A DNA stretch of 64,000 bases from Minisyncoccota bacterium (GCA_041664265.1 JBAYLD010000001.1:40051-104050); one strand, 5' to 3'; positions 3,288 through 50,554 are shown, numbered from the stretch's first letter. Translations and numbers: made by a program. The notes: a model not told the origin generated them from the letters alone.

Positions 3288-4251
3288 GAGGCGTTTTCTC
3301 CTTTCTCTTTTTTTCTTCTGCTTCATACCGCTCGACGAACTTCGTCGGCTTGCAGGGGTTGGTAAACAGAGTCCGCCAGAACTCGCCCTTGGTGGGCAAA
3401 TGGATCGTGCCGAAGCTTACGGCTCCTGCACCAAGCATCTCTCTTACATAGTCGAGATTCTTAAATTCCATGATGTCCGGACAAATGACCGGAAGTGCCC
3501 CTTGTCGGGCCAGTTTACCGACAACCGGCCAATTCAGCAGTTGCGCCAGCTCGCCCGACACACCGCCCCCACCTCCTCCGACTCTCTTTTCGAGCCGCCA
3601 GAGGGGGCTTTTTGCTTGGCCGAAGATCACTTCCCACGGCACGCTGTTGAGGCTGATCGCCTCGGCGATACCTTTGAGACTTTCCGCTATCTTCTCGTAC
3701 GCCTGGACGACCGACACTTTGACGATGACCGGATGCCGCGTGACTGCCTTGACAGCCTTCACGCTGTCGATCACCTCATCAGCAGAAGGCATCCCGTGGC
3801 CTGTGTTCGGGCACGAGGGGTTAAGTTCGATCGCGGCCAGTCTCAATTGATTGAGGAATTCGGTCATGTACACCAGCTCTTTGGTCGTCCCATACAGCGA
3901 CACAATGATCGAATACCGATCGAAGTCTATCTTCGGCGCGACATTAAGCCACCACCATTTGAATCCTTTATTGGTGAGGCCGACTTTGTTGACCGCACCC
4001 CCAGTGATGAGCTTCATACAGCTCCATGGACTTATCAGGAGCCAAGTCAGTGGATTCCACCACTGAAAGTTTCCTCTCCGCGATTTAAGCGTTAAGGTCT
4101 TCAACACGACCTCGAATAACTCGGGCTTGATGAAGCCGAGCTTCACCAGCCACTTCTCCCAGGGCCAGCCCTTGCCGTCGAAGGCGAGGGCGCCGCTCGC
4201 GACCACATACCGCAGTACATGGCCGTTTGACAATGTTATTCCTTTCATCAC
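3265..4251 (-). CDS. pyrD: Dihydroorotate dehydrogenase (class 1-like)
   Basis: 'IELNPSCPNT' matches the DHOD catalytic-loop signature 'ELNLSCPNV'. A Gly-rich FMN-phosphate loop lies near the C-terminus. Adjacent to pyrC. Confidence 0.7.
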   Translation of the reverse strand: MMKGITLSNGHVLRYVVASGALAFDGKGWPWEKWLVKLGFIKPELFEVVLKTLTLKSRRGNFQWWNPLTWLLISPWSCMKLITGGAVNKVGLTNKGFKWWWLNVAPKIDFDRYSIIVSLYGTTKELVYMTEFLNQLRLAAIELNPSCPNTGHGMPSADEVIDSVKAVKAVTRHPVIVKVSVVQAYEKIAESLKGIAEAISLNSVPWEVIFGQAKSPLWRLEKRVGGGGGGVSGELAQLLNWPVVGKLARQGALPVICPDIMEFKNLDYVREMLGAGAVSFGTIHLPTKGEFWRTLFTNPCKPTKFVERYEAEEKKRKEKTPHESNDRS

Positions 4252-4359
4252 GAGACACCTCCTTTTCTTTGTTTTATTGTTGTATTTCTTTCAATACCTA
4301 TAAAGGGCATGTCGATTCTCTCGACTCCGTGGCAACCCTAACTGAAAAAAGGACAGAAA

Positions 4360-5862
4360 TCAAACTCCGGCACCGTACCGCTCTTTCAGGTACTCGATAA
4401 AATAACGGCTGTTCGGATATTCTCCCGTCGCCCGCTTCACCAGGTCGGCGACGCGATATCGCCTACCGTGGCGATAAATGTTTTCCCGAAGCCATTCGCG
4501 CGGCGTCGCAAAGTCGCCTGCCGCTATTTTTTCAGACAAATCGGGAACGGCTCGCTGCATGGCGGTGTAGAACTGGGCAGCATAGAGCGTACCAAGCGTA
4601 TACGCGGGGAAGTTGCCGATATCCCCGACCGCCCAATGCATATCCTGCAAGACGCCGAGCCGATCATTCGGAACACTGATACCGAGATATTTTTTCATCT
4701 TGGCGTTCCAGATCGCAGGCAAGTCCTCAAGAGGGAGCGTCCCCTCGATCATCTCCTTCTCAATCTCGAAACGAAGGATGACGTGGAGATTATAGGTTAC
4801 TTCGTCTGCCTCGGTGCGAATAAGAGACGGCTCGACCCTGTTGATGATCCGCATAAATTCACTAAGGGGAATTTTCTTGAACGGCTCTGGGAATTCTTTC
4901 CGGATCTTCGGGTAAAAATACTTCCAAAATGCCGTGCTTCTGCCGATATTATTCTCCCAGAGCCGCGACTGCGACTCATGGATGCTTGCAAATGACGACT
5001 CCCCGAGCGGCGTGCCGAAGTGCCGGAGAGGCAATCCTTGTTCATAGAGCCCGTGGCCGGTCTCGTGAATCGTCGAGCCGAGCGCATACATGAGATCATC
5101 TTCTCGCATCCGCGTCGTGATGCGGACATCCTGCGTATGGAAGGACGCGGTAAACGGATGCGGGCTCTGGTCCAGCCGCCCTGCGGCATAATCGAAGCCC
5201 ATCTGCTCAGAGACAAATCGGTTGAACGCCAACTGTTGGTCGAGCGGGAACGCACCGAGGATACGCGCCGGGTCGACTTTGTCACCGGAGCGCACGAGCG
5301 CACCGATAAAAGGGACGAGGAACTGTTTTAGATCACTGAACAAAGCTTCAATACTTTGAACGGTCGAGCCCGGCTCATACTCGTCGATTAACGCGTCGTA
5401 GGGGGAATCATTGAAGCCGACGAGTCCTGCTTCTTCACGCTTCAGATCCACAATCTTCTTCAACCAGGGGAGAAACATGCCGAAATCGCTCTCCTCCCGC
5501 GCGCGCACCCAAGCGGCATAGGCTCTCGACGTTGTTTCTGACATCTGTGCGACAAACGCTTCCGATAGTTTCTTCTGGCGTGCATAGGTACGCCACGTCT
5601 CGGTAACAATCGCTGCGTTCCCTCCCGAGAGTTTTTTCGCATCGACTTGTTTCTTCAGCTTCGAGAGCAGCCGGTCATCATCGATCGCGGACAGCTTCTG
5701 ATGCGTGATGCCGTTGATGCATGCGAGTGCGTTCGCGCGCGCTTCGACCCCCTTCCTCGGCAGATACACTTCTTGATCCCAACTTAATACATCGCCGACC
5801 GAAGCAAGACGCGCAATCTCGATGAGGCGCTTTTTTAAGATCTTGAGAGAATCTGCCGCCAT
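4360..5862 (-). CDS. M32-family carboxypeptidase (carboxypeptidase Taq-like)
   Basis: 'HETGHGLYEQG' HExxH zinc motif typical of M32. Length about 500 aa. Confidence 0.75.
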   Translation of the reverse strand: MAADSLKILKKRLIEIARLASVGDVLSWDQEVYLPRKGVEARANALACINGITHQKLSAIDDDRLLSKLKKQVDAKKLSGGNAAIVTETWRTYARQKKLSEAFVAQMSETTSRAYAAWVRAREESDFGMFLPWLKKIVDLKREEAGLVGFNDSPYDALIDEYEPGSTVQSIEALFSDLKQFLVPFIGALVRSGDKVDPARILGAFPLDQQLAFNRFVSEQMGFDYAAGRLDQSPHPFTASFHTQDVRITTRMREDDLMYALGSTIHETGHGLYEQGLPLRHFGTPLGESSFASIHESQSRLWENNIGRSTAFWKYFYPKIRKEFPEPFKKIPLSEFMRIINRVEPSLIRTEADEVTYNLHVILRFEIEKEMIEGTLPLEDLPAIWNAKMKKYLGISVPNDRLGVLQDMHWAVGDIGNFPAYTLGTLYAAQFYTAMQRAVPDLSEKIAAGDFATPREWLRENIYRHGRRYRVADLVKRATGEYPNSRYFIEYLKERYGAGV

Positions 5863-5872
5863 ATACTTATTC

Positions 5873-7342
5873 TTATTTCCCTAAATCAAGGATGTCGTCA
5901 ATGCGGATCTGTGCGACGAACTCGGGCACATGCGAGACAAGGATCATCGCGCCTGCATACTGGTCGAGCGCCTTGGCGATAACGGGTAGATGGCGGAAGT
6001 TAATATGGTTTGTCGGCTCATCGAGAATAAGGAGGCCTGGCCGCTCTAAGACGAGGGAGGCAAAGGCGACCAGACCCTTCTGCCCTTCAGAGAGGCTCCC
6101 GATCTTCGTCTGCATAACTTCTGCAGTGAGCAAGAAGCCCGCAGCCGTCGCGCGGAGTTTCTGCTCATCGGGTTGCCCCATCGCCTTTATGAGTGCAGCG
6201 AACACGGTTTGGTCGAAATCAAGAGTGGAAAAATCTTGGCGATAGTAGCCGATCTTCACTCCTTCGGTTATGTGCGCACCTTCTGGCGAGCCGAGGACAA
6301 GCCGTTCGAGCAAGGTGCTTTTGCCGATGCCGTTTGGTCCCCGCAAAAGCAAATGCTGATTTTTCCGTAGCGAGATATTCGCCTTTTTCTTCACCGGCTT
6401 TTTGCCACCATGCAAGGTGTACGAAGACAGCGCCAGGACCACACCGCCCAAATCCGGCTGTGCGGGAATCGTGAACGGCCGGATAGTCTTATCCTCTTTG
6501 CGCACCTCCACCTTCTCTTCTTCCATTTCCTCTACCTCGGTGCGCATCTTCTTCGCGACGAGGCGCATCTTGCCACCCTTCTGCGCAAAGAAGTTCGCCT
6601 TGTCCTTGTTCTCCTGGATCTTCTTTGCGAGCTGTGCGTTCTTCTTGTTCTCCCGATCAATGCGCGCCACGATGTCGCGCTGCACATCGTTATAATTCCC
6701 GTTGTACTGCTCAACCTTGCGCGTGAAGACATCGAGGTAGAGCACGCCGGTGGTGAATGCGTTCAAAAATTGCGCATCGTGCGAGATAACAATACAGGTC
6801 CCCGTATAGTCGACCAAAAACTTTGTGAGATGTGCGATGCCGGCGGCATCGAGATTATTCGTCGGCTCATCCAAGAGAAGCAGATCGGGATTCTGGATAA
6901 GCGCCGAGGCGAGCAAGAGGCGCGCCTGCTGGCCGCCTGAGAAGCTGCTCATGACCCGCTCATGCAGCTTCTCATGCTGCTCTAGATTCACCACCTCAAG
7001 CACGGCATCAATCTTTGGATCAATATCATAGACTGGCTTGTCGAAACATTTTTGGAAAAATTCGCGCACTGTGAGCCCGAGCGCCGCGCGCGGAACCACC
7101 TGCGGCGCGGTCGCTATCGTCACACCGCGCGAGACGTGTATCTCGCCGCTTTCAGGCCGCAACGTCCCTGCCATCAAAGCGAAGAGAGTCGACTTCCCCG
7201 CGCCGTTTTGGCCCATGACCGCCATCTTCATCCCCCGGCGCACAGGGAAATCAACCTCATCGAGAATCGGCTTGTTGTGCCCATAGTCAAACGAAACTTT
7301 CTCAAAGCGCAGGACGCTCTCTTCTCGGCTCATGAAAGCCAC
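5873..7342 (-). CDS. ABC-F family ATPase (two ABC domains, no TM domain)
   Basis: Two Walker A motifs (GQNGAGKST, GPNGIGKST) and two ABC signatures (LSGGQQ, LSEGQK) joined by a charged linker. Confidence 0.8.
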   Translation of the reverse strand: MAFMSREESVLRFEKVSFDYGHNKPILDEVDFPVRRGMKMAVMGQNGAGKSTLFALMAGTLRPESGEIHVSRGVTIATAPQVVPRAALGLTVREFFQKCFDKPVYDIDPKIDAVLEVVNLEQHEKLHERVMSSFSGGQQARLLLASALIQNPDLLLLDEPTNNLDAAGIAHLTKFLVDYTGTCIVISHDAQFLNAFTTGVLYLDVFTRKVEQYNGNYNDVQRDIVARIDRENKKNAQLAKKIQENKDKANFFAQKGGKMRLVAKKMRTEVEEMEEEKVEVRKEDKTIRPFTIPAQPDLGGVVLALSSYTLHGGKKPVKKKANISLRKNQHLLLRGPNGIGKSTLLERLVLGSPEGAHITEGVKIGYYRQDFSTLDFDQTVFAALIKAMGQPDEQKLRATAAGFLLTAEVMQTKIGSLSEGQKGLVAFASLVLERPGLLILDEPTNHINFRHLPVIAKALDQYAGAMILVSHVPEFVAQIRIDDILDLGK

Positions 7343-30837: not shown

Positions 30838-30858
30838 CCGTAAGGTGACACCTTACGG
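30838..30858. repeat. Perfect 10-bp-arm palindrome CCGTAAGGTG-A-CACCTTACGG at the prfB/ftsE junction; a related copy lies at 41056-41086
   Basis: Read directly. The motif GTAAGGTGACACCTT recurs after the 2-hydroxyacid dehydrogenase stop. Confidence 0.5.
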
Positions 30859-34090: not shown

Positions 34091-34131
34091 CAAAAAGAAC
34101 CCCGCACTACGTCGTGCGGGGTTCTTTTTTT
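34091..34131. terminator. Bidirectional rho-independent terminator (A-tract, 11-bp GC stem, T-tract) between tRNA-Asp and the peptidase gene
   Basis: caaaaa-gaaccccgcac-tacgtc-gtgcggggttc-ttttttt. Confidence 0.65.
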
Positions 34132-34331: not shown

Positions 34332-34359
34332 GCGGTCGTATGGTAATCCATACGACCGC
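34332..34359. repeat. Perfect 12-bp-arm hairpin gcggtcgtatgg-taat-ccatacgaccgc in the intergenic region between the tRNAs
   Basis: Read directly. The arm begins with the same 9 nt (GCGGTCGTA) as the tRNA-Asp 5' end. Confidence 0.5.
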
Positions 34360-34728: not shown

Positions 34729-35028
34729 CTAATTCGTCAGTTCGAGAATCACCTCAAAATCATCCTCCTTTGAGGCTTTATTTTTTCGCTCGAAGCCACA
34801 CACCACACAGCGATGCAGGATCACCTGCCCCTCGCCCTCAAGCGCCGCATCCACCGGCTCCATAAGCCCCTTGCAAGTGGCGGCGCGGTCACCCGGATTA
34901 ACATCTACATGTTTGCACCAGAGGCACCTTGGGCAATGGTTGGTGTACCCATTCCCCACTACTTCAAACCCGCACCGCTCGCAGGTGAAGTCCTCTTTAT
35001 TCCTTTGGAATTTCTTAGATAGGGTCAT
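34729..35028 (-). CDS. RNHCP-domain zinc-ribbon protein
   Basis: 'CERCG...YTNHCPRCLWCKH...CVVCG' Cys clusters including the NHCP signature. Confidence 0.45.
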   Translation of the reverse strand: MTLSKKFQRNKEDFTCERCGFEVVGNGYTNHCPRCLWCKHVDVNPGDRAATCKGLMEPVDAALEGEGQVILHRCVVCGFERKNKASKEDDFEVILELTN

Positions 35029-35050
35029 CCCTTTGGTATACTATGAGCCA

Positions 35051-36391
35051 ATGGGACATAGTATACAGAACTTTGACGCGCTCGCAGAGAGTGAACAGAG
35101 ACGCGACGCGCTCGCGATAGCCGAGGCCGGCTACGAGGCAATAAACATCGGCAATGCCCTGCGACGCAAATTGAAAATCGAAAATGCTGCCCTGCAAATT
35201 GATGGACACGGAGTGTCCATCAATTTGCAAAACAGAAAAGTGTTTTTTGTCGGCATCGGGAAGTGCGCGTTTGTAGCTGCTCAAGCAATCGAACAGTTAC
35301 TTGGTGAACGCCTGACTGCCGGTATCGCGTTTGATGTGTCCGATCTGTCGAGATCAGATGTCGACAACAACTGTCGACATCTGATCTCGACTTCGAGAAT
35401 TGAGAAAATTGTCGGCACGCATCCCTTGCCGAACGAGGTGAACGTACAAGCGACAGAACATATCCTGCAATTTCTTTCAGAACGCACTGAAGAAGATCTG
35501 ATCATCATGCTCATCTCCGGCGGCGGCTCTACCTTGATCTGTGCCCCCGAAGCCCCCATGACATATCAGGATGAAGTTACCCTCTTTAAAGAACTAACGG
35601 CAAAAGGCGCGACCATACAAGAGATGAATACGGTGCGCAAGCATACCTCCCGCGCGCGCGGCGGTGGCCTCGCGCGCGCCGCCTTCCCTGCCGAAGTTAT
35701 TTCTCTGATTGTGTCTGACGTACCAGGGAACGACATTGCATACATCTCTTCCGGCCCGACGGTACGAGACGCCTCGACGATCGCCGAGGCCGAGACGGTG
35801 TTTGCGCGCTATGACATTACTCCGCCAGCGAACACCGTGTTCACAGAAACACCAAAAGAAGAGAAGTTTTTTGAGCGCGTAACCAACGTCCTCTTCCTCA
35901 CCAATCAAGACGCGCTCGCTGCGATGCAGGGCGAAGCAACGCGCCTCGGCTATACGGCCGAAGTGGTTGACGACCACTTTTCTGGCGAGGCGCGCACTAT
36001 CGGCCACAGTATTGTGGAAAAACTTCACGCTGCACCATCAAAAACTGCCCTCCTCTACGCCGGCGAAAGCACTGTAATGATGGACACTCCGTGTCCATCA
36101 ATTTCTGGGACTGGTGGACGGAACCAAGAAATGGCACTCGCTGCGCTCGAGGACGTACGCGGTGACGAGCTTGTCCTACCTTTCGCTTCAGATGGCCACG
36201 ACAACACTGACCACGCCGGGGCGATCGCTGATGCGGTCACTATCGCACATGCACGGGCAAGAGATATCTCGTCTGTAGAGTATCTCGCGGCACACCGTTC
36301 GTATGATTTTTTCAAAACAACCGGCGACGCACTTCAGACGGGGTATACTGGATCAAACGTGTCTGACCTTATCGTCGCACTCAAACTTTAA
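35051..36391 (+). CDS. Glycerate kinase (glycerate 2-kinase; MOFRL/GckA-TtuD family)
   Basis: 'GGGSTLICAPE', 'IQEMNTVRKHTSRARGGGLA', 'LIVSDVPGND', C-terminal MOFRL 'GGRNQEMALAAL...SDGHDNTDHAGA'. Start at MGHSI (35051); the ORF begins at 34871. Confidence 0.8.
   Translation: MGHSIQNFDALAESEQRRDALAIAEAGYEAINIGNALRRKLKIENAALQIDGHGVSINLQNRKVFFVGIGKCAFVAAQAIEQLLGERLTAGIAFDVSDLSRSDVDNNCRHLISTSRIEKIVGTHPLPNEVNVQATEHILQFLSERTEEDLIIMLISGGGSTLICAPEAPMTYQDEVTLFKELTAKGATIQEMNTVRKHTSRARGGGLARAAFPAEVISLIVSDVPGNDIAYISSGPTVRDASTIAEAETVFARYDITPPANTVFTETPKEEKFFERVTNVLFLTNQDALAAMQGEATRLGYTAEVVDDHFSGEARTIGHSIVEKLHAAPSKTALLYAGESTVMMDTPCPSISGTGGRNQEMALAALEDVRGDELVLPFASDGHDNTDHAGAIADAVTIAHARARDISSVEYLAAHRSYDFFKTTGDALQTGYTGSNVSDLIVALKL
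35193..35229. repeat. Family-A palindromic element, full copy (17-bp arms, 3-nt spacer), inserted in-frame in the glycerate kinase gene
   Basis: tgcaaattgatggacac-gga-gtgtccatcaatttgca. Encodes 'QIDGHGVSINLQ'; the antisense frame also reads IDGHSVSIN. Confidence 0.7.
35347..35391. repeat. Family-B palindromic element (20-bp arms, 5-nt spacer, two SalI-like GTCGAC cores), inserted in-frame in the glycerate kinase gene
   Basis: gtcgagatcagatgtcgaca-acaac-tgtcgacatctgatctcgac. Encodes 'RSDVDNNCRHLIS'. Confidence 0.7.
36075..36104. repeat. Family-A palindromic element, degenerate copy in inverted orientation, in-frame in the glycerate kinase gene
   Basis: aatgatggacac-tcc-gtgtccatcaattt. The spacer tcc is the reverse complement of gga in copy A1. 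The antisense frame encodes EIDGHGVSI. Confidence 0.65.
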
Positions 36392-38803: not shown

Positions 38804-40036
38804 ATGCGCATCGATCACGTTGAAGCCAAACAGATTCTCGACACGCGCGGCCGCGCGACGTTAGAGACAACACTCCTCGCGAACACACTTTCTGCGACTG
38901 CTTCGGTACCGTCGGGCAAAAGTACTGGCTCACACGAGGCACTTGAACTGCGCGACCCCGACGGGAGCGTCGCGCAAGCAATCGGGAATGTGAATGGAGA
39001 AATCGCGAAAGCGATCGTCGGCCGCCGTTTCGATACGCCCGGTGACCTTGACGCATTTCTCATTGAGCTTGACGGCACTCCGAATAAGTCACGGCTCGGC
39101 GCGAACGCGATTCTCTCGGTCTCTATCGCCGCGATGCGACTCTCCGCCTTTCTGCAGGACATCCCGCTCTGGAGCGCCATCGCGAAGCGTGGCGGTTTCA
39201 CCGCCACAGCACCGCGGCTCTACGTGAACGTGATGAATGGCGGCGCCCATGCCGATTTTAAGCTCCCTTTTCAAGAATATCTTCTGGTGATCGAGGGGAA
39301 GACGAGTGAAGCATTTCCTCTCGCGCAAGAGCTATTCGCGAAGCTTGGTGAACTTCTGTCGAAATCAGATGTCGACAGCAACTGTCGACATCTGATTTCG
39401 ACAAACGGGGTGCCGATGGGCGACGAAGGCGGCTATGCCCCGACCTTCGACACGATCGAGAAGCCGTTTGAGATCCTCTCGTCACTTATCGCCGGACACC
39501 CAAATGTTTCGCTCGCGATCGATGCCGCCGCGAGCGAACTCCTCCATGGTGGCGTATATCAACTGCTTGGAAAATCGTATTCGCCTGACGAGCTCGCAAC
39601 GCTTTACCGTGAGCTTGTCGAACGGTTTCCTATTCATAGCATTGAAGACCCGTTTGCTGAAAATGCGCCCGATGATTTTGCCCAGCTAAACACAACTCTT
39701 GGGCAACAGATCCTCATTATTGGCGACGATCTCACAGTTACTGATCCTGTGCGCATCAAAGATGCTGCTGAACACAAAGCAATAAATGCGGTACTGATTA
39801 AGCCGAACCAGATCGGCACGGTGCGCGAGGCGCTCGAGGCCGTCAAAGAGACATACGTCGCGAGCTTCCAAGCGGTGGCGTCGCACCGCTCGGGCGAAAC
39901 AGGCGACACCTTCATCGCGGACTTCGCCTATGGCGTCGGTGCTCACGGACTCAAGGCCGGCGGCTTCGCACAAAAGGAACGTCTCGTGAAGTATGAGCGC
40001 CTCATGGCGATAGAGCGCGAGACTGCAGCTGTCTAG
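38804..40036 (+). CDS. eno: Enolase (phosphopyruvate hydratase), carrying an in-frame family-B palindromic insertion
   Basis: 'ILDTRGRATLE...SVPSGKSTGSHEALELRD', 'GDEGGYAP', 'IKPNQIGTV'. An extra 'SKSDVDSNCRHLIS' loop lies before GDEGG. Confidence 0.85.
   Translation: MRIDHVEAKQILDTRGRATLETTLLANTLSATASVPSGKSTGSHEALELRDPDGSVAQAIGNVNGEIAKAIVGRRFDTPGDLDAFLIELDGTPNKSRLGANAILSVSIAAMRLSAFLQDIPLWSAIAKRGGFTATAPRLYVNVMNGGAHADFKLPFQEYLLVIEGKTSEAFPLAQELFAKLGELLSKSDVDSNCRHLISTNGVPMGDEGGYAPTFDTIEKPFEILSSLIAGHPNVSLAIDAAASELLHGGVYQLLGKSYSPDELATLYRELVERFPIHSIEDPFAENAPDDFAQLNTTLGQQILIIGDDLTVTDPVRIKDAAEHKAINAVLIKPNQIGTVREALEAVKETYVASFQAVASHRSGETGDTFIADFAYGVGAHGLKAGGFAQKERLVKYERLMAIERETAAV
39357..39403. repeat. 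Family-B palindromic element (22-bp arms, 3-nt spacer) inserted in-frame in eno
   Basis: tgtcgaaatcagatgtcgacag-caa-ctgtcgacatctgatttcgaca. Shares its core with the copy at 35347-35391. Confidence 0.7.
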
Positions 40037-41055: not shown

Positions 41056-41133
41056 GGTGTTTCCTTACGGAGTAAGGTGACACCTTCTGCTTCCTCAAGC
41101 AAGGAGACTCCTCGCTGCGAGGAGTCTCCTTGC
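41056..41133. repeat. Intergenic structured region: a nested partial copy of the GTAAGGTGACACCTT motif plus a 16-bp-arm hairpin gcaaggagactcctcg-ctg-cgaggagtctccttgc
   Basis: Read directly. Lies between the 2-hydroxyacid dehydrogenase stop and infB. No T-tract follows. Confidence 0.45.
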
Positions 41134-50497: not shown

Positions 50498-50554
50498 AAA
50501 ATTGAGTGGCAGAGATTATTTAATCTCTGCCACTCAATAATAACATCAAGCGAA

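Follow-up and report, generated by a model that had tools for sequence, protein, structure and literature searches.

Palindromes read in frame in a Minisyncoccota glycerate kinase gene resemble REP hairpins and are probably linked to a Y1 transposase

Most work on repetitive extragenic palindromes (REPs) and REP-associated tyrosine transposases (RAYTs) has concerned Proteobacteria and has treated the repeats as extragenic. Among the Rickettsia palindromic elements (RPEs), the classical RPE-1 is about 100–150 bp long and encodes 30–50 amino acids, and we know of no transposase for it. Intragenic REPs are known in Opitutus, Rickettsia and others, and the short RPE-4 and RPE-6 have been re-classified as CGTC REPs (Di Nocera et al. 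2013; PMC3733652); for Escherichia coli, a RAYT bound to its REP hairpin is available as a structure (PDB 4ER8). A full-text literature search found no report of REP/RAYT systems or in-frame palindromes in the candidate phyla radiation (CPR)/Patescibacteria. Here we describe a 64,000-nt stretch of DNA (the window) from a Minisyncoccota bacterium (GCA_041664265.1, JBAYLD010000001.1:40051–104050), in which two copies of a short palindrome, family A, lie in frame within a glycerate 2-kinase gene (35051–36391, + strand). We consider it probable (roughly 70%) that both are non-autonomous hairpins of the REP type and that a Y1 HUH transposase of the IS200/IS605–RAYT group spreads or maintains them in trans.

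The host gene encodes a 446-amino-acid protein with DUF4147 and MOFRL domains (open reading frame (ORF) list plus Pfam, 209 and 84 bits, respectively), which ends at 36391 and probably starts at the ATG at 35051. The product has solved homologues (PDB 2B8N and 1X3L, E ~1e-49), is 100% identical to orthologue P0001 from a Candidatus Paceibacterota metagenome-assembled genome, and gave a confident AlphaFold2 (AF2) model (predicted local distance difference test (pLDDT) score, 84.6). As with RPEs, the palindromes thus reside in the frame of an apparently functional gene: the ORF is intact, it keeps the conserved motifs and it hosts three palindromes without interruption. Close orthologues are mostly 429–432 amino acids long, compared with 446 in the window.

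Family-A copy 1 (35193–35229, + strand) is a perfect 17+3+17 palindrome, TGCAAATTGATGGACAC-GGA-GTGTCCATCAATTTGCA, with fully complementary arms, exactly as first predicted; its core, T-GATGGACAC-GGA-GTGTCCATC-A, spans 35200–35222. It is translated as LQIDGHGVSINLQ (reading IDGHGVSIN), and in the AF2 model this segment forms a confident β-hairpin (strands 47–50 and 55–58) with DGHG at the turn. Copy 2 (36078–36100, + strand) is a perfect 10+3+10 palindrome, TGATGGACAC-TCC-GTGTCCATCA, equal to the 23-nt core of copy 1 with the loop reverse-complemented; because TCC is the reverse complement of GGA, the original prediction was correct in assigning the two copies opposite orientations. Its description of the second copy as a degenerate palindrome at 36075–36104 holds for the outer flanks (aa-TGATGG...CCATCA-attt, the left side being one base short) and not for the core. 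Copy 2 is read in a different frame from copy 1, as MMDTPCPSI, and lies in a low-confidence loop immediately before the GGRNQE motif (residues 346–354, pLDDT <50). The glycerate kinase frame reads through both copies, and antisense ORFs with the peptide IDGH(S/G)VSI are present opposite them (35015–35284 and 36055–36315, both on the − strand), so these claims also stood.

Both copies have the short stable stem-loop of a REP. Folded as single-stranded DNA, copy 1 reached −18.6 kcal/mol (z = −7.8) and copy 2 −9.9 kcal/mol (z = −3.9), and none of 200 shuffles gave an equally stable fold for either hairpin. Searching the 64 kb for GATGGACACNNNGTGTCCATC with up to three mismatches returned exactly two matches (0.00 in 100 shuffles). 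The 9-mer half-site was not enriched in the window (14 matches at ≤1 mismatch, 12.5 expected), and a half-site frequency close to expectation rules out an uptake-signal or Chi-like motif. An assembly or amplification artefact was likewise ruled out, given that the independent JGI, NCBI, ENA and Logan assemblies carry the palindromes at identical codons. We saw no evidence for an inversion switch between the two inverted copies, although no search was aimed at it; such an inversion would destroy the enzyme.

Across genomes, the family-A unit can be written T-GATGGACAC-NNN-GTGTCCATC-A, with a 21-nt core that equals seven codons. Scanning one genome per GTDB species gave 44 loci of the 21-mer, approximately 31 of which were assigned to Patescibacteria by record title and gene content, and a metagenome scan with the GGA/TCC version of the window added 21 loci, sample Ga0172379 alone holding at least nine copies. 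Individual genomes carry several copies (eight in JBBTSV, loop tac/gta; six in JACPGH, gac/gtc; four in JAZDHA, gga/tcc; three in DATEBU, tta), and the loop triplet is usually constant across the copies of one genome, in either orientation. The T at −1 and the A at +1 are conserved in 52 of 54 oriented copies, whereas the other flanks vary by locus; 5′ of the hairpin the 54 copies show no more than a slight preference for AAWT at −5 to −2, and no conserved asymmetric flank or cleavage motif. Since the T at −1 creates a TGA in the third frame on both strands, genic copies read only as DGHxVSI or MDTxCPS. Copies in frame were found in genes for Tgt, ScpB, TsaD, RecR, GlyRS, AtpG, Ung, an RNase J-like protein and the C-terminal subunit of transketolase, often at orthologous positions in several genomes. 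By an approximate count, 60% of the Patescibacteria copies fall within ORFs of ≥150 amino acids of recognizable function and are therefore not extragenic as in typical REPs. Family-A copies are singletons; inverted doublets (REPINs) were not seen. That the identical 21-mer occurs in unrelated genes of many Patescibacteria genomes supports the original idea of a repeated palindromic element placed in frame in a housekeeping enzyme.

RecR provides a further comparison of carriers with a native form. Native RecR reads RL-KNN-LKE (200 amino acids), whereas carriers, approximately 17 of 120 orthologues, read RL-S-DGHSVSI-K-LRE or KN-DGHxxSI (206–209 amino acids), a pattern that, as read from the sequences, is consistent with a 21-nt, seven-codon insertion between the T and the A. 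For transketolase the net length change is presumably close to zero, an estimate made by comparison with consensus sequences. A few family-A copies have one more arm beside them (L031, ~4728–4763; L034, ~3408–3443; L039, 7164–7196; L055, ~1346–1380), such as GATGGACAT-GATGGACAC-gta-GTGTCCATC or GTGTCCATCAAAGTGTCCATCAAA (encoding VSIKVSIK), which hints that arms were duplicated locally.

The link to a transposase comes from the genome neighbourhoods, which we read over 8–20 kb around each match. At locus L036, an ORF of 234 amino acids (3521–4222, − strand) matches Pfam Y1_Tnp (33 bits; cut-off, 23) and is bracketed at 3509–3531 and 4240–4262 by TGATGGACAC-tac-GTGTCCATCA, the loop being that of the six other copies in the same genome. 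At L027, a homologue 72% identical to the L036 transposase is likewise bracketed by family A. A transposase gene flanked by the dispersed hairpin was therefore seen in these two genomes and not on the contig of the window. Protein searches recovered 162 homologues of the transposase, all apparently from CPR-type contigs, and an H-x-H motif and a tyrosine are invariant across 34 homologues. The 213,202-bp contig that carries the glycerate kinase gene also encodes one homologue (P0210; 56% identity), at a distance of about 67 kb. The AF2 model of P0210 (pLDDT, 94) has the E. coli RAYT structure 4ER8 as top Foldseek match (E = 5.9e-5), followed by the TnpA structures of IS608, ISDra2 and IS200; at the sequence level, a phmmer search against PDB sequences gave no meaningful match and a profile search reached only E = 0.36. 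P0210 has GTGTAGACACC-g-GGTGTCTACAC as its flanking hairpin and an imperfect, hybrid one (GTGGACAC/GTGTCTAC) upstream, and other members of the clade are flanked by TGTAGACAC- or TTGACAC-type hairpins, all of which have the inner GACAC..GTGTC stem in common. No tnpB gene was seen adjoining the transposase gene in the neighbourhoods read.

Three further observations concern these transposase loci. A distantly related Y1 transposase gene (35% identity to that of L036) lies about 1 kb downstream of recR at L041 (JBAYHD010000002.1) and is flanked by a hairpin of its own, AATGAAAGGTTT-cgt-AAACCTTTCATT, an additional copy of which is in frame inside the transposase ORF (the three copies are at 3833–3857, 4021–4050 and 4558–4584). 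Beside one flanking family-A copy at L036 is a 23+3+23 palindrome (4292–4340), GCGCACGGCACAGTGAGGGACAC-tac-GTGTCCCTCACTGTGCCGTGCGC, with the same loop and the inner-stem variant GGGACAC. On the contig of the window (L074, 5252–8024), six small genes with matches to T4SS_pilin (PF18895) lie approximately 2–5 kb upstream of P0210.

The best surviving alternative is that family A represents the end hairpin, or a solo or miniature (PATE-like) derivative, of an autonomous IS200/IS605-type insertion sequence (IS) that moves together with its hairpins, as opposed to a domesticated, single-copy RAYT with its REP population. Hairpins do bracket the transposase gene as in IS200, but bare hairpins of 21–37 nt far outnumber that gene; the flanking hairpins of L036 share one loop orientation, like the left end (LE) and right end (RE) of IS200/IS605, whereas the two flanking loops of L027 are inverted. 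Mobility of the gene itself would fit its varied neighbourhoods in different genomes (pilin genes, murB–secA, gyrA) and the length of most transposase contigs (~1–2 kb, as when assemblies break at repeats), yet within the parts read each genome has one copy of the r36-type gene. The Foldseek scores for the IS608 and ISDra2 TnpA structures nearly equal that of 4ER8; nonetheless, the best structural and NCBIfam matches are to RAYTs. Overall, we regard this alternative as improbable.

We compared the two glycerate kinase sites with orthologues by aligning 30 proteins, by aligning nine genes at the codon level and by using regular expressions to extract sequence from 120 orthologues. At site 1, the palindrome is confined to 3 of the 120 (P0001–P0003), the usual orthologue sequence being EL-x-I-x-x-x-x-Y-x-L and the carriers having a net gain of two amino acids. 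Across its 37 nt, P0003 is identical to the window except for a loop flipped to TCC, and P0002 has one mismatch. At site 2, carriers are P0001, P0004, P0007 and P0033 only (4 of 120), with a net gain of four amino acids; all read MDTxCPS within the same boundaries, each with a different loop triplet. A purely ancestral peptide, the case that would have spoken against insertion, was ruled out, as the segments are missing from 117 and 116 of the 120 orthologues, respectively. The loops of 12–13 added residues that were originally proposed did not materialize, and the net changes of two and four amino acids indicate that simple insertion is not the whole story. In the structural model, the site-1 element appears to replace or re-encode a native β-hairpin, and the site-2 element appears to extend a disordered loop by four amino acids. 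Carriers are scattered on a rough neighbour-joining tree, the resolution of which is too weak to choose between repeated gain and repeated loss.

At the DNA level, site 1 is more conserved than the remainder of the gene: third codon positions agree at 12 of 13 sites within the palindrome, compared with identities of 0.46–0.49 across the rest. Such conservation beyond the need of the protein might indicate that the palindromes are selected functional cis-elements, either targets bound by a dimeric protein of the chromosome (comparable to parS, matS or NBS sites) or regulatory mRNA or DNA hairpins. Across genomes, hairpins also sit at corresponding sites in RecR, ScpB, TsaD and glycerate kinase, but the element is missing from most orthologues, and the protein loops concerned hold many palindrome families unrelated to one another. 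A low copy number is typical for such sites, whereas a genome-specific, asymmetric loop triplet is unexpected for a symmetric dimer site, and the half-sites show no enrichment. Compensated arm changes in a second palindrome family of the window (family B, described below) would suit a selected hairpin; identical family-A copies bracketing a transposase gene in two genomes would not. Taken together, we consider a cis-acting role highly improbable. Formation in place, by template switching in a quasi-palindrome of the native β-hairpin-coding stretch and without any insertion, would account for the small net change (+2 amino acids at site 1 and presumably almost none in transketolase), for LQIDG-like residues at site 1 in orthologues that lack the element (the left arm CTG CAA ATT GAT GG resembles CTT CAG ATT GAC GGC of P0009) and for the loop flips seen when the window is compared with P0003, and L007 with L032, a result expected of strand switching. 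It is nonetheless largely refuted, and to us scarcely credible, because the identical 21-mer, loop included, turns up elsewhere in the same genomes, both within unrelated genes and between genes, and beside a transposase gene, with a chance expectation of 0, and because the extended site-1 arms GCAAATT..AATTTGC (a 33–35-nt palindrome) are found between genes in a different genome too (L056) and so are not a local product.

Under the REP-type reading that we prefer, the transposase would bind the folded hairpin on single-stranded DNA and would cut and rejoin the DNA beside it, so that the hairpin is copied to new sites without target-site duplication. Direct repeats were absent from the borders of both family-A copies, as this mechanism predicts; the original prediction had proposed a search for such duplications. 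Coding density in these compact genomes is assumed to be roughly 90%, and many insertions would be expected to fall within genes. A genic insertion would survive only if its 21-nt length keeps the frame, if that frame avoids the TGA arising from the 5′ T, and if the 7–11 encoded residues sit in a surface loop or substitute for a β-hairpin. At site 1, the arms may encode the two strands, and the loop the turn, of the native N-terminal β-hairpin; at site 2, a flexible loop would have been lengthened. Later trimming of nearby native residues may have left the small net gains at the two sites. For the enzyme itself, the element probably serves no purpose.

Several observations weigh against this reading. 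The Y1 transposase of the window's own genome is flanked by a related but different hairpin (of the GTAGACAC type, no copies of which occur in the window), so that for this genome the link to family A is one of homology and relatedness, not identity. None of 28 loci with GGA-loop copies adjoins an r36-type transposase gene; in the 21 metagenome loci, only a different, r41-type gene was found, which lies downstream of recR and has its own REP, AATGAAAGGTTT..AAACCTTTCATT. Against the NCBIfam RAYT model NF047646 the transposases score 31–35 bits, below the cut-off of 80. The search for further copies that was originally suggested succeeded in related genomes, but the two glycerate kinase copies are the only ones in the 84 kb of the window's genome examined. 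Genomes hold 2–8 exact copies of family A rather than the hundreds typical of REP/RAYT systems, and the 54 oriented copies lack a GTAG or CGTC head tetranucleotide; GTAG is present within the stem of the sister hairpins that flank P0210 and P0195. A plain 21-nt insertion fails to explain the net gains of two and four amino acids, and trimming or replacement has to be assumed. The site-2 boundaries recur in distant orthologues (P0001, P0004, P0007 and P0033), which requires many losses, recurrent precise hits or recombination. Finally, mobility of family A is a proposal drawn here from sequence comparison.

Family A is not the only palindrome read in frame. The window contains ten perfect palindromes (arms ≥10 nt, loop ≤8 nt), compared with approximately 0.65 in Markov simulations, and two genes close to each other in a glycolytic gene cluster carry four of these in frame. 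The third palindrome of the glycerate kinase gene (35347–35391, + strand; 20+5+20) belongs to family B, is translated as SRSDVDNNCRHLIST and forms an insertion of approximately 10–11 amino acids in a low-confidence, disordered loop (residues 100–113); P0013 and P0022 have a variant palindrome there, with differences, each compensated, at 7 of 19 arm positions. The second family-B copy (39357–39403, + strand; 22+3+22) is in frame in the enolase gene (38804–40036), where it is a clean 45-nt (15-amino-acid) insertion that is missing in L049 and L051 and replaced by variant palindromes in L048 and L050. The two window copies, TGTCGA[G/A]ATCAGATGTCGACA.., differ by one compensated G/A..C/T pair, and orthologues carry covarying variants (RKSDIHSSCGCLTSS and others). 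We conclude that family B belongs to the same phenomenon as family A, as a different repeat family.

These insertions concentrate at particular protein loops. In the nine glycerate kinase genes, perfect palindromes of several families occur almost solely at three hot-spot loops; these three loops (in P0005–P0120) and one RecR loop hold many other lineage-specific inserts, such as SARSHLTDAVRRHLA, GPSPRRSGLLPRE, AGPSIPLGA and SPREGRLTS, of which the few inspected as DNA are palindromic. A bolder, speculative view, which we think has the odds against it, is that REP-like palindromes tied to RAYT-like transposases supply a large share of the lineage-specific insertions in loops of Patescibacteria core enzymes. 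Many unrelated families would then use the same hot spots (three glycerate kinase loops, one in RecR and one in enolase) and be kept perfect by active re-copying or conversion, including loop flips and compensated arm changes, so that the system would generate and maintain surface-loop diversity instead of being inert junk.

Other palindromes lie elsewhere in the window. A perfect 17+1+17 intergenic palindrome, GCAAGGAGACTCCTCGC-t-GCGAGGAGTCTCCTTGC (41099–41133), is located between the genes for a 2-hydroxyacid dehydrogenase and translation initiation factor IF-2, and its arm resembles an imperfect palindromic insert, GCGAGGAGTCACCTCAC.., at glycerate kinase site 1 of P0006. Two palindromes at 1081–1118 and 6932–6980 have a common arm core (GAGAAGCTGC/GCAGCTTCTC), one being a perfect 16+6+16 and the other 88% complementary, and may constitute another repeat family. 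The perfect palindromes at 50501–50538, 34092–34129, 34332–34359 and 30838–30858 have arms of 10–18 nt and are intergenic or adjacent to tRNA genes. The window also has a match to the Rfam LOOT RNA (RF03000; 15292–15418; 56.4 bits, gathering score 46.4).

If family A is what we propose, a relative of the REP/RAYT system operates in ultra-small, gene-dense CPR bacteria, with its hairpins largely inside essential genes. This would explain why CPR annotations show odd lineage-specific insertions along with spurious antisense ORFs, and may explain assembly breaks at these repeats. The copies also amount to a natural experiment on which protein sites accept a fixed cassette of 7–15 amino acids, and the short transposase with its defined hairpin substrate makes a biochemically testable pair. 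That many palindrome families use the same protein loops again and again is, in our view, the part most worth following up. Different families in the same loops of orthologues hint at a wider, undescribed mode of protein-loop evolution in the CPR.

The comparison with described systems returns to the classes named at the outset. The original prediction likened the element to RPEs or to intragenic insertions of the MITE (miniature inverted-repeat transposable element) kind; its notion of an in-frame selfish repeat stands, and the closest class has shifted to hairpins of the REP/RAYT type. MITEs have terminal inverted repeats enclosing an internal region, lengths of 70–300 bp and a target-site duplication, whereas family A is a single hairpin of 21–37 nt without border repeats. 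RPEs are similar in being read in frame within working housekeeping genes of a bacterium with a reduced genome, at orthologous sites kept between species and apparently tolerated in surface regions; family A differs in its smaller unit (21–37 nt, or 7–12 amino acids) and in having a candidate Y1 transposase, and it is presumably unrelated to RPEs in sequence. With IS200/IS605 (IS608 and ISDra2), family A has in common a Y1 HUH fold, a hairpin-flanked gene, a predicted recognition of single-stranded DNA and no duplication of the target; it differs in its bare hairpins without a gene, in flanking hairpins of one sequence instead of distinct LE and RE, and in the absence of a visible tnpB. The closest correspondence is with the REP/RAYT system represented by E. 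coli 4ER8: stem-loop palindromes of 20–40 nt that are dispersed in related genomes, genome-specific in sequence, found in two of these genomes as identical copies on both sides of a Y1 HUH transposase gene and free of target-site duplications. Intragenic REPs add the parallel of some in-frame copies in DNA repair, tRNA and housekeeping genes (PMC3733652). Beyond copy number and head motif, family A departs from these systems in being mostly intragenic rather than extragenic, in the lack of observed REPIN doublets and in an associated transposase of approximately 230 amino acids whose C terminus has a helical extension and whose NCBIfam RAYT score is under the cut-off. With these likenesses and differences, family A is best classed with the elements of the REP/RAYT kind, the Patescibacteria being a lineage new to that kind.

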